This document shows positions 3,359 to 47,832 of a stretch of 64,000 nt of DNA, one piece after another. The stretch comes from Escherichia phage CJ20, in sequence record MT533174.1. One strand, 5' to 3'. The notes below the pieces were generated by a model. That model was not told the DNA's origin. It worked only from the letters and a program-made list of their open reading frames with translations, and did no database searches. Each line of letters begins with the position of its first letter. The stretch's first letter is position 1. A program made the translations under genes and the position numbers.

Positions 3359-3388
3359 TAATACATGACCAAACAACATGGATTAAAT

Positions 3389-3712
3389 ATGGAATTACCA
3401 ATTAAAGCAGTAGGTGAATATATTATTTTGGTTTCTGAGCCAAAGCAAGCTGGTGATGAAGAAACTACGGCATCAGGTATCGTTATCGGAAAACTCCATC
3501 AGGGTGAAATCCCAGAGATGTGTGAAGTATTTTCGGTTGGTCCAGATGTTCCTGAAGGTTTCTGTGAAGTAGGTGATTTGACTCCTCTTCCGGTTGGCAA
3601 GATTGCAAACGTTCCACATCCTCTGGTTGCTCTGGGACTTAAGCAGGCTAAAGAAGTTAAGCAGAAATTTGTGACCTGCCATTATAAAGCTGTTCCTTGT
3701 CTTTATAAGTAA
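3389..3712 (+). CDS. 31: Co-chaperonin for GroEL (GroES analogue) needed for major capsid protein folding
   Basis: Strong similarity to recalled T4 gp31 (AVGEYxILVSEP...[14 protein letters not shown]). Start placed at second ATG because a MotA-box/-10 motif at 3333-3358 puts the transcript start near the first ATG (3365). Confidence 0.85.
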
Positions 3713-3729: not shown

Positions 3730-3883
3730 ATAATATGGATTGGTTGATGTCATACAGAGCTTTGCTGGTGTATGGGGTTAGCTAATCCTAAACGGTGGAC
3801 TACAACTGAGAGACTTGCCGCAAGGAAGTGAAATTCAGAAGAACGTGTCCACCAAATATTCACCTCATATTGAGGCTTCTAAA

Positions 3884-4138
3884 ATGTCTTTAAACAAACA
3901 ATTACAACACGCTCTCGAACTGCAACGCACTGCATGGAATAACGGTCACGAAAACTACGGCGCATCTATTGATGTTGAAGCCGAAGCACTGGAAATTCTG
4001 CAGTATTTCAAACATCTTAACCCGGTTCAAACCGACCTTCGCGCAGTGCTCGAAGCAAAAGATGAACTGAAATTTGCTAAGCCGCTGGCATCTGCTGCCC
4101 GTAAAGCTGTTCGCCATTTTGTCGTAACCCTGAAGTAA
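3884..4138 (+). CDS. rIII: rIII-like lysis-inhibition accessory protein
   Basis: 84-aa frame immediately downstream of gene 31 as in T4; SD GAGG 8 nt upstream; TATAAATA at 3722-3729; sequence identity to T4 RIII only loosely recalled. Confidence 0.55.
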   Translation: MSLNKQLQHALELQRTAWNNGHENYGASIDVEAEALEILQYFKHLNPVQTDLRAVLEAKDELKFAKPLASAARKAVRHFVVTLK

Positions 4139-4200
4139 GCTGTAGGTGATTCGCTACCTTAGTGCGGCTAGAAAATCGAGGAGCCGTCGAACTGCCTGAT

Positions 4201-4220
4201 TAATGATTCGCGAATCATTA
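4201..4220. repeat. Perfect 20-bp palindrome TAATGATTCGCGAATCATTA in a ~300-bp non-coding gap
   Basis: Read directly; reverse complement identical. Confidence 0.8.
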
Positions 4221-4434
4221 TAGTTTTAAGACCCCAGCAGTTTTACGGTGTACCTCTTGAATGTATTTTGTACTATCACGCGTCAGAAAAAGGTTATCTG
4301 TCTAAGCCGTGGTTGGTATGATGACGAGGTTTATGGTTATCCTGTCGTTAAATATCCGAAACCTAATGTTCCCTTCGAGGGCTTGCGCAGGCAACGTCAA
4401 TAAGTCCTGCATTCTATTTTAAAGAGAATTTAAT

Positions 4435-4596
4435 ATGGCTAAGAAAGAAGTTAAAGTTGTTGATGGCTCCTCCAAACGCGCTGGTTACAAGCGTGCGTCC
4501 AACAAGCGAATCAATCAGGTAACTGATAAACTTCAGGCTCGTGCTCGTGCGGTATTGCGTGCCGATGCAGCTTGCTTTGGTAAGCCGAAAGCATAA
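4435..4596 (+). CDS. Small basic (Lys/Arg-rich) hypothetical protein, 53 aa
   Basis: ATG 4435, stop 4594-4596, followed directly by hairpin terminator 4601-4628; below the 60-aa cut-off of the supplied ORF track. Confidence 0.4.
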   Translation: MAKKEVKVVDGSSKRAGYKRASNKRINQVTDKLQARARAVLRADAACFGKPKA

Positions 4597-4600
4597 GTTC

Positions 4601-4628
4601 AGGGACTCTTCGGAGTCCCTTTTTTATT
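4601..4628 (+). terminator. Rho-independent terminator (AGGGACTCttcgGAGTCCCT + T-run)
   Basis: GC stem with UUCG loop followed by TTTTTT. Confidence 0.6.
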
Positions 4629-4640
4629 TTCCATAAAGGG

Positions 4641-4670
4641 GTTTACAACAGGGTTTGACCAGTGCATAAT
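4641..4670 (+). promoter_or_regulatory. Early-type promoter (GTTTACA, 18 nt, CATAAT) with leader shared with 27807-27836
   Basis: Motif; a 24-nt stretch ATAATGATTCCATACTGAGTTAC is identical at both sites. Confidence 0.5.
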
Positions 4671-4711
4671 GATTCCATACTGAGTTACACAATAAAACAC
4701 TGGAGAATAAA

Positions 4712-27806: not shown

Positions 27807-27836
27807 GTTTACAACCCGATTAAGATAAGACATAAT
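27807..27836 (+). promoter_or_regulatory. Early-type promoter (GTTTACA, 17 nt, CATAAT), duplicate of the 4641 element
   Basis: Motif and 24-nt identity with 4665-4688. Confidence 0.5.
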
Positions 27837-27872
27837 GATTTCATACTGAGTTACCAAACAATGGAGTCTAAA

Positions 27873-47796: not shown

Positions 47797-47804
47797 TATT
47801 TATA
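47797..47804 (-). promoter_or_regulatory. Late promoter core TATAAATA upstream of gene 9
   Basis: Octamer on - strand between gp8 terminator and gp9 ATG. Confidence 0.5.
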
Positions 47805-47832
47805 AAATAAAAAAGGGACCCGAAGGTCCCTA
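47804..47832 (-). terminator. Terminator after gene 8
   Basis: GGGACCcgaaGGTCCC hairpin; T-run on - strand. Confidence 0.55.

Follow-up and report, generated by a model that had tools for sequence, protein, structure and literature searches.

The stretch of Escherichia phage CJ20 DNA analyzed here (64,000 nucleotides of sequence record MT533174.1, hereafter the window) carries rIII on the plus strand (3884-4138, 84 aa from its ATG), followed by a second plus-strand gene of 53 aa that encodes a very basic protein (4435-4596), both as given in the ORF list. An initial annotation had described a non-coding gap of about 300 bp after rIII, and 296 non-coding bases (4139-4434) indeed lie between the rIII stop codon TAA (4136-4138) and the downstream start at 4435. 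rIII, the upstream gene of the transcription unit, is so annotated in VR7, SP18, T4 and RB69, with 63–87% identity in protein alignments. The basic protein belongs to PHROG 1427 (E = 3e-26, function unknown) and its gene is the homologue of T4 gene 30.9. Among T-even phages the source phage is VR7-like, and the 296 bases correspond to its rIII-30.9 intercistronic region. The gap had also been called relatively GC-rich, which is not the case: its G+C content is 42.2% compared to a window mean of 41.2% (sd 3.6%), 40% of 296-nt windows have at least this value, and the genes on either side are higher, at 45.5% and 48.1%. An ARAGORN scan of the gap returned no tRNA, in agreement with the earlier statement that tRNA-like features are absent.

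The gap is present in 775 of 50,697 phage records, including T4, where its counterpart spans 244 nt (130541-130784) and carries no annotation in the T4 records. Over aligned columns the window and T4 are 89.6% identical in the gap, compared to 85% in rIII, 77% in gene 31 and 80% in 30.9, with only 62–69% identity at third codon positions. The gap therefore appears to be under stronger constraint at the nucleotide level than the adjoining genes. The gap had no match in Rfam 15 at E ≤ 10, and the T4, SP18, S16 and PM2 loci had none at E ≤ 1 other than terminator-like matches outside the gap. The folding energy of the gap as a whole is no better than that of shuffled sequences (z = -0.14). A search of the rest of the window for repeats of gap sequence found none but the terminator and promoter that follow 30.9, and pattern scans of the window found the modules described below in single copy. 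A scan of viral contigs with the 14-mer GTCGTTAAATATCC was discarded, as its 120 loci (L011-L130) were mostly chance matches. Our literature search found no described T4 ncRNA and no usable study of the rIII-30.9 intergenic region; the expression of rIII and 30.9 is the subject of Driukas & Nivinskas 2003, as cited in PMC9409239.

Scanning 4139-4434 for transcription signals revealed no sigma-70-type promoter, no TATAAATA late promoter and no intrinsic terminator. The only intrinsic terminator of the rIII-30.9 unit is found after 30.9, at 4601-4620, and an early-type promoter for 30.8 is located at 4642-4670. For T4, early, middle and late promoters have all been reported to drive rIII (PMC9409239).

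The initial annotation also pointed to a perfect 20-bp palindrome and other dyads within the gap. The palindrome TAATGATTCGCGAATCATTA is located exactly at 4201-4220 (10+10), and there are additional dyads, for example 4184-4195 with 4237-4248, the two arms of which flank it. A search for other copies in the 64-kb window returned this one alone, even with three mismatches allowed (0.01 matches expected by chance). The consensus structure from RNAalifold places the palindrome within a long irregular RNA hairpin of 80 nt on the plus strand, module MA (4178-4256). The lower stem of MA consists of GAGG/CCUC plus GCCGUCGAACUGC/GCAGUUUUACGGU; above it are an asymmetric internal loop with a conserved UAGUUUUAAGACCCC on its 3' side and an apical stem-loop. 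The apical stem corresponds to the palindrome, which forms 8 bp (UAAUGAUU/AAUCAUUA) closed by the 4-nt loop CGCG. Of the 25 consensus pairs, seven are backed by compensatory double substitutions. The paired fraction is 98.9% of cells, and none of 500 shuffles reached this value or the covariation score. The cells comprise 327 Watson-Crick, 44 G.U and 4 A.C combinations, and the excess of G.U over A.C indicates that the sense strand is the folding strand. Folded alone, MA has an energy of -24.4 kcal/mol (z = -3.6). The single-stranded linker UUGAAUGU (4257-4264, plus strand), 3' of MA, is invariant in all MA-bearing sequences.

Comparison of homologues revealed that the tetraloop, CGCG in the window, is UGCG, UGUG, UGAG or UACG in relatives. 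The center of the palindrome reads TTTGCGAA, TTTGTGAA, TTTGAGAA or TTTACGAA in 14 of 15 distinct homologous sequences, making the DNA dyad imperfect. In L151/IME341 the apical stem carries U-A to C-G and A-U to U.G changes. The apical part is missing altogether in Ozark, S16 and 348Ecol098PP, where a 5-nt loop closes the lower stem. The palindrome core occurs in 13 T4-like viral contigs, one copy each, and in no bacterial genome in an exact-pattern scan of 185,579 species genomes. Perfection of the palindrome is peculiar to CJ20, with a single loop substitution accounting for the perfect DNA symmetry, and the comparison indicates that the palindrome is the tip of an RNA hairpin and not an operator. 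Of the three suggestions made initially, a structured small RNA is the one that finds support, given the covariation in MA and its G.U/A.C asymmetry, although about seven modules in a row, and not a single RNA, make up the structure.

Downstream of MA are further plus-strand modules. MB (4270-4319) is a two-tier hairpin with an outer stem, an inner CAGA/UCUG stem and a conserved UCUAAG in the internal loop; 5 of its 16 consensus pairs show compensatory changes, and in L148 a wholly different outer stem (GCUCUA/UAGAGC) encloses the same core. MB is optional. It is missing in T4, and in SP18-type phages a module of ~140 nt, MX, is found instead; MX of SP18 and the Klebsiella-type phages is 140 nt long and doubly pseudoknotted. 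MC (4321-4363) is an H-type pseudoknot and the most widely conserved module, present in 33 of 34 distinct gaps from the viral-contig set and in 10 of 10 GenBank gaps, and missing only in the gapless L166. Stem S1 pairs 4321-4329 with 4341-4348, stem S2 pairs GGUU (4335-4338) with AACC (4360-4363), and loop 3 is A-rich (UAAAUAUCCGA). The arms of both stems differ completely among lineages while complementarity is maintained; versions of S2 include GGUU/AACC, UUGUGAG/CUCACAA, CAAGGUU/AAUCUUG and GAUGG/CCAUC. In a MAFFT alignment of MC, 82.7% of cells are paired compared to 72.0% in shuffles, and there are 30 compensatory cells; neither value was reached by any of 500 shuffles, and slid controls gave at most 50%.

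The next module, ML (4368-4385), is a single-copy short hairpin, CCCU-UCG-AGGG (4371-4381), inside a conserved GUUCCC...GGGCUUG context. Its stem is CCCU/AGGG, CCUC/GAGG or CCC/GGG depending on the relative. In L146, L148, L154 and L168 ML directly follows the rIII stop codon, and hence moves as a unit. A likeness to GCTT, the core of a MotA box, was seen by eye in the GGGCUUG of ML; with no TAnnnT at the required spacing, this candidate was rejected. MT (4387-4410) is a GCAGG/CCUGC hairpin with a conserved 14-nt loop, CAACGUCAAUAAGU (-6.6 kcal/mol, z = -2.75); in S16 and L152 the stem is ACUGG/CCAGU, extended to 7 bp, around the same loop. RNAalifold also proposed an alternative pairing between ML and MT, AGGGCUUG/UAAGUCCU, which is possible but unsupported by covariation, and S16 and L152 do not preserve it. 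Finally, a weak AUUCU...AGAAU hairpin (4411-4429, plus strand) overlaps the Shine-Dalgarno region (AAAGAG) of 30.9. Such an anti-SD/SD pairing occurs 5–9 nt before the 30.9 start in all lineages with altered sequence (T4 has AUUUUC/GAGAAU, S16 and the Klebsiella-type phages UCUCC/GGAAGA) and is weak throughout (-0.7 to -5 kcal/mol).

A related module lies outside the gap. MR (3794-3853, plus strand), a three-tier hairpin in the gap between gene 31 and rIII, occurs once in the window, has a folding energy of -18.9 kcal/mol (z = -3.0) and is located directly upstream of a hairpin that sequesters the Shine-Dalgarno sequence of rIII (3861-3875). In Klebsiella-type relatives (L145, L149, L156, L159) MR precedes 30.9 and not rIII, and it is a member of the same shuffling set as the gap modules. 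Across related phages, the gap modules come, go and change their order as whole units. Modules other than M0 (described below) had no match when the CJ20 and L159 gaps were searched against plasmids by blastn. A blastn search of 5,426 E. coli genomes gave no match even at E ≤ 10, and the exact-pattern scan of the 185,579 species genomes did not find the MX core.

The first module of the gap, M0 (4144-4177, plus strand), stands 24 nt upstream of the palindrome. ToxI is a 36-nt pseudoknotted RNA antitoxin that keeps ToxN, the endoribonuclease of ToxIN abortive-infection systems, inactive. M0 (AGGTGATTCGCTACCTTAGTGCGGCTAGAAAATC) matches one full-length ToxI repeat, the unit of a type III antitoxin RNA, and can be described as a pseudo-ToxI. 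It is the most informative feature of the gap and was absent from the initial annotation. When the gap was searched against 72,556 plasmids by blastn, M0 alone matched, with 85–87% identity to 7 records that are all tandem ToxI-type arrays. The same is true of the L159 gap, in which M0 alone matched 66 ToxIN plasmids with 93.5% identity. M0 is identical to the ToxI repeat of pPA21A at 29 of 34 positions, and the pPA21A array is upstream of a ToxN/AbiQ toxin gene. In pECA1039, as we verified, the ToxI repeat AGGTGATTTGCTACCTTTAAGTGCAGCTAGAAATTC is present in 5.6 tandem copies ahead of toxN.

A covariance model built from plasmid ToxI repeats only (R2) matched M0 with 32.5 bits (E = 4.7e-5, model positions 1-37, sense strand). 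The annotated pseudo-ToxI of phage phiTE, used as a positive control, scored 47.6 bits with the same model. Over 180,757 bases the model found the ToxI-like units of rIII-30.9 gaps and nothing else. All matches are full length, on the sense strand and directly after rIII, except in L159, L160, L161, L168 and L154, where the unit is found one or two modules deeper within the gap. Both stems of the ToxI pseudoknot, stem 1 (GGUG/UACC) and stem 2 (YRC/GYR), are retained in M0. Across 22 plasmid and phage sequences 93.5% of cells in these stems are paired, with 3 compensatory pairs, and 0 of 500 shuffles reached the paired fraction or the covariation score. By these measures M0 is a complete, single ToxI-like unit.

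M0 variants differ in the ToxI family they resemble. Those of the window, VR7 and L154 are of the pPA21A/pECA1039 type (85–91%), those of Ozark and T4 of the Pantoea type (86% and 69%), that of 348Ecol098PP of the E. coli pRHB30 type (86%) and that of L155 of the Enterobacter type (86%). The T4 unit has only 63–69% identity to any sampled ToxI repeat. The window and each of 21 related loci contain one copy, and a few other phages of the collection contain ~1.7–2 units. At its 3' end M0 carries AAAU (4173), a ToxN cleavage motif (AA^AU) that does not occur between the rIII stop codon and M0 and is missing at the 3' end of M0 in some relatives; the 5' tail (AUUC in ToxI) and the upstream cleavage site are absent. 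With rIII and 30.9 as its neighbors, M0 is an orphan antitoxin-like unit and not a toxin-antitoxin locus. It is unannotated in the records inspected, and among the matches listed only that of phiTE is labelled pseudo-ToxI. Given its sense-strand position in the rIII-30.9 unit and the lack of a terminator before 4601, M0 is presumably transcribed during infection. RB69, Bp7 and LF82-3 retain most of the gap but lack M0, which suggests that the other modules have a role independent of it.

The closest described counterpart of M0 is the pseudo-ToxI of phiTE (Blower et al. 2012, PMC3475682), likewise an intergenic repeat in a lytic phage, resembling plasmid ToxI without matching it exactly, and likewise found by the plasmid-derived covariance model. 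The VR7-type and phiTE units differ mainly in 4–5 bases near the 3' end. While the phiTE locus is a stand-alone ncRNA locus of 1.5 tandem repeats beside tRNA sequences, M0 is exactly one unit within the rIII-30.9 mRNA, is followed by conserved structured modules, and exists in several variants that match different ToxI families. The phages also belong to different groups, Straboviridae here and Vequintavirinae for phiTE. Infected cells express the phiTE RNA, and experiments with expanded repeats showed inhibition of ToxN (PMC3475682, PMC3594212), an activity that is predicted for M0. The wild-type 1.5 repeats of phiTE are not protective because the active pseudoknot spans the repeat boundary (PMC3594212). 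That M0 is a single unit was, by comparison with wild-type phiTE, counted against decoy activity, as were the missing 5' tail and upstream cleavage site.

M0 and the ToxI repeats of pECA1039 and its relatives can be aligned end to end over 33–36 nt with 83–91% identity, and share the GG/CC and YRC/GYR stems and an A-rich 3' tail with AAAU. Unlike ToxI, M0 is not part of a tandem array (1.9–5.6 repeats in ToxI, from which active units are cut out) or of a promoter-array-terminator-toxN operon, and has no toxN nearby; it also has a CCUUUAAG loop shortened by 1–2 nt and no 5' AUUC tail. RNA anti-CRISPRs, which are solitary CRISPR-repeat mimics in phages, offer a parallel in that a single phage copy of the RNA partner of a defense protein serves as a decoy, although the defense system and the RNA are different and there is no sequence relation. 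Other modules of the gap have likenesses of shape. Phage T7 early mRNA contains intercistronic RNase III processing hairpins that, like MA, are long and irregular, have an internal loop and are positioned between two cistrons. MA has no sequence relation to them, and its overall shape would be compatible with RNase III cleavage; we know of no dependence of T4-type phages on RNase III for the rIII-30.9 transcript. MC, for its part, fits the description of the type III antitoxins TenpI (mean repeat 51 nt) and CptI, whose pseudoknot architecture has been reported (PMC12283969, PMC3401426), as an H-type pseudoknot of 40–57 nt with an A-rich stretch; MC and these RNAs share a length of ~45–50 nt, two stems and an A-rich second half. 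The likeness is one of architecture, by description, and MC had no blastn match among the plasmids and E. coli genomes searched. NCBIfam and Pfam recognized no TenpN on the K. pneumoniae plasmid that PMC12283969 names.

Taken together, we consider it probable that the gap is a transcribed array of structured RNAs carrying a predicted decoy against ToxIN, the decoy activity and the role of the hairpins being our inference. The gap would then be not a spacer but the intercistronic part of the rIII-30.9 mRNA, with independently folding sense-strand modules arranged in a chain. Shut-off of host transcription by the phage would lead to decay of host ToxI and release of ToxN. The ToxI look-alike that the phage provides on an abundant message would bind ToxN and keep it inactive, as has been found experimentally for the pseudo-ToxI of phiTE. 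As M0 variants seem to be matched to different plasmid ToxI families across the T-even phages, the ToxIN variants that a given phage can ignore would depend on this element. T4 is blocked by E. coli toxIN of the pECA1039 type, implying that the T4 M0 does not neutralize that variant. With lower confidence, we propose that MA and the later modules are structural elements of the untranslated RNA. They could act as a barrier to exonucleases and Rho that spares both the decoy and the 30.9 cistron, offer a site for processing and tune 30.9 translation; they might also be decoys of other kinds.

Several other explanations were weighed against an RNA decoy. A DNA-level function for the palindrome, whether as the operator of a dimeric protein, as a cruciform or as part of a replication or packaging signal, is very unlikely. 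While a perfect 20-bp dyad is improbable by chance and folding energy is equal on both strands in CJ20, the dyad is unique in 64 kb, variable at its center and imperfect in all but one of the distinct homologues, located within a longer covarying hairpin and, in its apical part, dispensable in several phages. One relative alters the arms via a U.G intermediate, and three G.U pairs that would be A.C mismatches on the other strand are invariant or nearly so in 15 distinct sequences. On this evidence the operator proposed in the initial annotation can be set aside; its other proposal, a replication or packaging site, found no support in a region that is inside a transcription unit and lacks any promoter or terminator match. 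Equally remote is the prospect of small protein genes, whether unannotated or decaying. The gap contains ORFs of 51 aa (4248-4403) and 37 aa (4309-4422), two CDS are annotated in the gap of Yersinia phage P8, and an ATGATG is frequent at the start of MC, with its frame kept in T4 via two compensating indels. However, the longest gap ORFs lose their frame or stop early in relatives, in which modules of 52 nt are lost and stop positions vary; the ORF from the MC ATG runs for anything from 0 to 34 codons depending on the phage, and the ATG is missing in several. The gap ORFs have no Pfam or PHROG match and substitutions follow paired stems, not codons. The ORFs called in the gap in several GenBank records are almost certainly spurious. 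Somewhat less improbable, but still unlikely, are one or more independent small RNA genes with their own promoter, ending before 30.9 and acting in trans on host or phage mRNAs. This would fit the strong conservation and structure of the gap, and the U-rich stretch after the MT hairpin (AUUCUAUUUU) could be a weak terminator; against it, the scans found neither a sigma-70-type or late promoter nor a terminator-like site, the search for a MotA box by eye gave no convincing -10 element at the right spacing, and no Rfam family matched.

The most serious competitor, which we regard as possible but doubtful, is a purely cis-acting leader or processing region. The modules would process, stabilize and translationally tune the rIII-30.9 mRNA, for example by RNase III or RegB cleavage at the GAGGAG-based hairpin or by occlusion of the Shine-Dalgarno sequence before 30.9, and the ToxI-like unit would be a remnant, without function, of a past recombination with a toxIN plasmid. 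Consistent with such a leader, the modules are part of an mRNA and lack promoters and terminators themselves, a hairpin followed by the anti-SD/SD pairing always precedes the 30.9 start, MR takes a position ahead of rIII here that is equivalent to its position ahead of 30.9 in other phages, and the GGAG at the base of MA is a RegB motif (RegB specificity, PMC9409239). RB69, Bp7 and LF82-3 dispense with M0 and keep the rest, and a single ToxI unit may be inactive, as in wild-type phiTE (PMC3594212). A relic would be expected to decay, yet M0 keeps both pseudoknot stems with compensatory changes, and its several versions, each 85–91% identical to a different living plasmid ToxI family, point to repeated acquisition or tracking. 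In addition, 30.9 follows rIII after a spacer of 9 nt in L166-like phages, which indicates that expression of 30.9 does not in itself require the modules, and the shuffled module order is difficult to reconcile with a single integrated leader. An RNA array that includes a ToxIN decoy thus remains our preferred reading. We also entertain, more tentatively than the cis-acting leader, a broader possibility, namely that the rIII-30.9 region and the MR-type module before rIII form a modular, recombining anti-defense RNA cassette of which M0 is the only recognizable member, with MC, MA, MB, MR and MX each a decoy or inhibitor of another RNA-dependent host defense (TenpIN, CptIN, AbiF, AvcID, host RNases). 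If so, the set of modules carried would help to define the host range of a phage.

Mimicry of an antitoxin RNA has, as far as we found, one experimentally characterized case, phiTE, which a 2017 study of T4-family phages escaping ToxIN still named as the only phage with an understood escape route (PMC5449768). The paper on TifA (PMC10853763) makes no mention of rIII, 30.9 or a ToxI-like RNA. Here, hundreds of genomes of T-even phages, that of T4 among them, carry a ToxI-like unit in a constant position directly behind rIII, and its family-matched versions have the appearance of an arms-race signature. The locus also yields covariation-supported RNA motifs that have no Rfam family, namely MC, which is present in nearly all of these phages, the palindrome hairpin, MB, MR and MX, and the conservation of these motifs exceeds that of the proteins around them. 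E. coli, Salmonella and Klebsiella commonly carry small ToxIN plasmids (75 plasmid records), and for this reason M0, if active, would be a determinant of host range that matters for phage therapy based on T4-like phages.

The region between rIII and 30.9 is a conserved, multi-module structured RNA region on the sense strand, and its most informative content is an orphan unit resembling ToxI, the RNA antitoxin of the ToxIN abortive infection system, that adjoins a palindrome. Megablast groups the window with VR7/VR25-like T-even phages of the genus Gaprivervirus (95–98% identity). Its + strand holds cd (2217–2798), 31.2, 31.1, gene 31 (3365–3712), rIII (3884–4138), a 53-aa basic ORF homologous to T4 gene 30.9 (4435–4596), a terminator after 30.9 (4601–4620), and an early-type promoter in the region before 30.8 (4642–4670). 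The non-coding gap of about 300 bp after rIII that the initial annotation had described was confirmed (4139–4434, 296 nt), and, in line with its statement on tRNA-like features, ARAGORN detected no tRNA. The description of the gap as GC-rich did not hold: its content is 42.2%, the window averages 41.2%, and 40% of windows of this size are at least as rich. The mechanical rIII ORF (3815–4138, 107 aa) begins at a TTG, and rIII is annotated with 129 aa in some records; the conserved protein begins at the ATG at 3884 and has 84 aa (82 aa in T4). Near-copies of 4601–4688, which spans the 30.9 terminator and the early promoter before 30.8, occur at 27831–27854 and 47799–47831 (24 nt at 96%, 37 nt at 89%). 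Repeated regulatory cassettes of this sort are standard in T4-type phages.

Sensitive blastn found the gap in 775 of 50,697 phage records, in Tequatrovirus, Mosigvirus, Dhakavirus, Gaprivervirus, Gelderlandvirus and other genera. The T4 gap is 244 nt long and without annotation in both T4 records. Identity between the window and T4 is 89.6% in the aligned part of the gap, compared to 85% for rIII, 80% for 30.9, 77% for gene 31, 67% for 30.8, and 53–69% at third codon positions. ORFs within the gap have no match in Pfam or PHROG and are broken or frame-shifted in relatives. A CDS is annotated inside the gap in Yersinia phage P8 (L002, 1995–2209), ON210139, MZ502379, OR539218, and PQ341120, with GenBank labels that range from 'hypothetical protein' to '1,4-alpha-glucan branching enzyme'; since the region is structured RNA, such calls are almost certainly spurious. 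Scanning the gap for promoter-like and terminator-like sites returned none, which suggests that it is part of a transcript ending after 30.9. Early, middle, and late promoters are all reported to drive rIII expression in T4 (PMC9409239).

We gathered the rIII–30.9 gaps of the window, 13 GenBank phages, and 42 viral contigs found through RIII. They range from 9 to 416 nt and have a mosaic build, in which discrete blocks are gained, lost, or change order among relatives. In the window, the + strand carries modules M0 (4144–4177) and MA (4178–4256), a linker (4257–4264), MB (4270–4319), MC (4321–4363), ML (4368–4385), MT (4387–4410), and an SD hairpin (4411–4429). The T4 gap lacks MB, those of RB69 and Bp7 lack M0, and that of LF82-3 lacks both M0 and MA, while MA is without its apical part in Ozark, S16, and 348Ecol098PP. 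In SP18 and many phages of the Klebsiella type, a ~140-nt module, MX, takes the place of MB, and in several phages the first module is MC or ML. In some distant T4-like phages (L166, 1425–1569) only 9 nt and zero modules lie between rIII and 30.9; in L154 (1449–1700) the modules are retained and 30.9 is either truncated or joined to a different gene. Array and gene can therefore occur independently of each other.

The perfect palindrome TAATGATTCGCGAATCATTA is exact at 4201–4220 and unique in the 64 kb searched for further copies (0.01 matches expected by chance). It forms the apical 8-bp stem and tetraloop of MA, an 80-nt hairpin. Using an unambiguous alignment of 15 distinct sequences, RNAalifold returned 25 pairs, 7 of them with compensatory double changes, such as CCGU/ACGG to CCAU/AUGG to CCAC/GUGG and CUG/CAG to UUA/UAA. 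Pairing is found in 98.9% of cells (327 Watson-Crick, 44 G·U, and 4 A·C), compared to 25–63% in slid controls, and none of 500 shuffles reached the observed pairing, compensatory-pair count, or covariation score. Three G·U pairs are invariant or nearly so; as these would be mismatches on the opposite strand, it is the sense strand that folds. Folded alone, MA has an energy of -24.4 kcal/mol (z = -3.6). The tetraloop is CGCG in the window phage only and UGCG, UGUG, UGAG, or UACG elsewhere, and in the apical stem of L151/IME341 a U-A pair is replaced by C-G and an A-U by U·G. The hairpin core sequence occurs once in each of 13 T4-like viral contigs and is absent from the bacterial species genomes searched. 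The palindrome is thus the tip of an RNA hairpin. Of the roles initially proposed for the gap, a structured RNA was right in kind given this folding and covariation. An operator for a dimeric DNA-binding protein is not supported, and one conserved at the DNA level is excluded, as the loop varies, the G·U pairs are strand-asymmetric, and the dyad lies inside a covarying hairpin; nor is a replication origin.

The sequence of M0, AGGTGATTCGCTACCTTAGTGCGGCTAGAAAATC, resembles the ToxI repeat, and ToxI identity was therefore tested. The initial 21 nt of that repeat are contained in a published primer (PMC5772629), and the full repeat, AGGTGATTTGCTACCTTTAAGTGCAGCTAGAAATTC, is present in tandem at 100% identity in pECA1039 and 51 other plasmids; in pECA1039 it forms an array of 5.6 copies directly upstream of a ToxN/AbiQ toxin gene. 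A blastn search of the whole gap against 72,556 plasmids returned seven records, all matching query positions 5–43 only, which correspond to M0. These records hold tandem arrays matched in up to 13 places at 85–87% identity, and the array of pPA21A precedes a gene for a ToxN homologue. The L159 gap likewise matched plasmids via M0 only (66 ToxIN plasmids, 93.5% identity). When ToxI arrays were retrieved from six ToxN lineages (34–100% protein identity), phage and plasmid units could be aligned end to end; both pseudoknot stems are retained (93.5% of cells are paired), with covariation in stem 2 (UGC/GCA, CGC/GCG, CAC/GUG). A covariance model, R2, built from ten plasmid repeats alone, was searched against both strands of the window and 48 related loci (180,757 bases). 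All 22 matches at E ≤ 1 were sense-strand M0 elements covering the full model length, mostly just downstream of rIII and, in L154, L159, L160, L161, and L168, one or two modules deeper in the gap. Scores were 32.5 bits for the single copy in the window (E = 4.7e-5), 42.5 for VR7, 48.1 for L155, and 21.7 for T4 (E = 0.018); as a positive control, the annotated pseudo-ToxI ncRNA of Pectobacterium phage phiTE scored 47.6 and its half repeat 22.1 bits. Together these comparisons show that M0 is a ToxI homologue. No report of a ToxI-like unit in T-even phages was found in the literature searched, including PMC5449768 and PMC10853763.

The best plasmid ToxI match varies from phage to phage. It is pPA21A for M0 of VR7 (91%), L154 (88%), and the window (85%); pECA1039 for L159 (86%); an Enterobacter unit for L155 (86%) and L161 (77%); E. 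coli pRHB30 for 348Ecol098PP (86%) and L168 (80%); and a Pantoea unit for Ozark (86%), S16 (74%), and T4 (69%). ToxI-like units of the subtype seen in the window are present in 125 phage records, among them those of the unrelated phages Salmonella 7-11, E. coli XT32 and FH3, Klebsiella pzk-kv7, Serratia 92A1, and Erwinia IT22; among the matches listed, only that of phiTE is annotated as pseudo-ToxI. Example positions are HM997019.1 37665–37705, OR231916.1 47584–47650, OR088902.1 135589–135648, and OP586623.1 66808–66844. The T5-like pzk-kv7 has ~2 units and 92A1 ~1.7. In two listed phage records the units overlap a tRNA-Ser gene, and in phiTE pseudo-ToxI (L194, 852–915) is directly followed by an apparent 3' part of a tRNA (GGTTCGAACCC...CCACCA), a hint that in phiTE ToxI-like units are linked to regions of tRNA genes.

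M0 lies within an array of new RNA motifs supported by covariation. Of the 16 pairs in MB, 5 are compensatory, and in L148 its outer stem is wholly different while the inner hairpin and UCUAAG loop are unchanged. MC is present in 33 of 34 distinct viral-contig gaps and 10 of 10 GenBank gaps, missing only in the gapless L166. It consists of two crossing helices: S1 pairs AUGNNN..NN with NN..NNCGU, and S2 connects the S1 loop with the 3' tail through co-varying arms (GGUU/AACC, UUGUGAG/CUCACAA, CAAGGUU/AAUCUUG, GAUGG/CCAUC, UUGUUGGUU/AACCAACGG). The MAFFT alignment is imperfect, yet 82.7% of its cells are paired, compared to 72.0% in shuffles, with 30 compensatory cells; 0 of 500 shuffles reach either value. 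MC is an H-type pseudoknot whose loop 3 is A-rich. The TenpI and CptI antitoxins have been described as 40–57-nt H-type pseudoknots with an A-stretch (PMC12283969, PMC3401426); judged from these family descriptions, they resemble MC in architecture only. The short hairpins ML and MT show some covariation; the stem of MT, CAGG/CCUG in the majority of phages, is ACUGG/CCAGU in S16. Every lineage has a weak anti-SD/SD pairing ahead of the 30.9 start. MB, MC, ML, MT, and the SD hairpin have no match in Rfam, plasmids, E. coli genomes, or GTDB genomes.

Across 4378–4410, RNAalifold favours an 8-bp helix between AGGGCUUG, from the 3' half of ML, and UAAGUCCU, from the loop and 3' arm of MT; this helix shows no covariation and has two pairs broken in S16 and L152. 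As this pairing and the ML and MT hairpins are mutually exclusive, the RNA immediately before the 30.9 ribosome-binding site could conceivably act as a switch. The MX module (ACGGCAAGUGCAUGC...GCUAACGGUGUGCAACAGAUAAGAG) lies between rIII and 30.9 in SP18 (L003, 1990–2240) and in L132, L137, L144, L145, L147, L149, and L155–L162. A hairpin with a GNRA cap can be made out by eye. The module also has a covarying loop-to-upstream pairing (CGAUGG/CCAUCG, UGAUGG/CCAUCA, CUAUGG/CCAUAG, CAAUGA/UCAUUG) and a covarying closing helix (UCUUAUC/GAUAAGA, UCUAUC/GAUAGA). MX has no Rfam match, and its 20-nt core occurs in 0 of 185,579 species genomes. The gap between gene 31 and rIII also holds a conserved structured module, MR (3794–3853), with a GGUGGAC/GUCCACC stem around two more tiers (-18.9 kcal/mol, z = -3.0), and an anti-SD/SD hairpin, CCUC...GAGG (3861–3875), lies between MR and the rIII start. 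The longer rIII annotations extend across MR, which in Klebsiella-type relatives stands ahead of 30.9, not rIII.

The expanded pseudo-ToxI of phiTE is expressed and inhibits ToxN (PMC3475682). Wild-type phiTE, with 1.5 repeats, gains no protection because the active unit spans the repeat junction (PMC3594212). M0 in the window, by comparison, is a single unit, without a 5' tail or an upstream cleavage site, and several phages retain other modules without M0. T4 is sensitive to pECA1039-type toxIN, consistent with T4 M0 belonging to another ToxI family. MA and MB–MT may plausibly serve in processing or stabilisation and in controlling the ribosome-binding site of 30.9. ToxIN-type systems fire once labile ToxI goes unreplenished, a mechanism described for T4 and toxIN. 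By analogy with phiTE, we infer that M0 may be an antitoxin decoy against ToxN, and a ToxI decoy carried by a message produced throughout infection would fit this firing logic.
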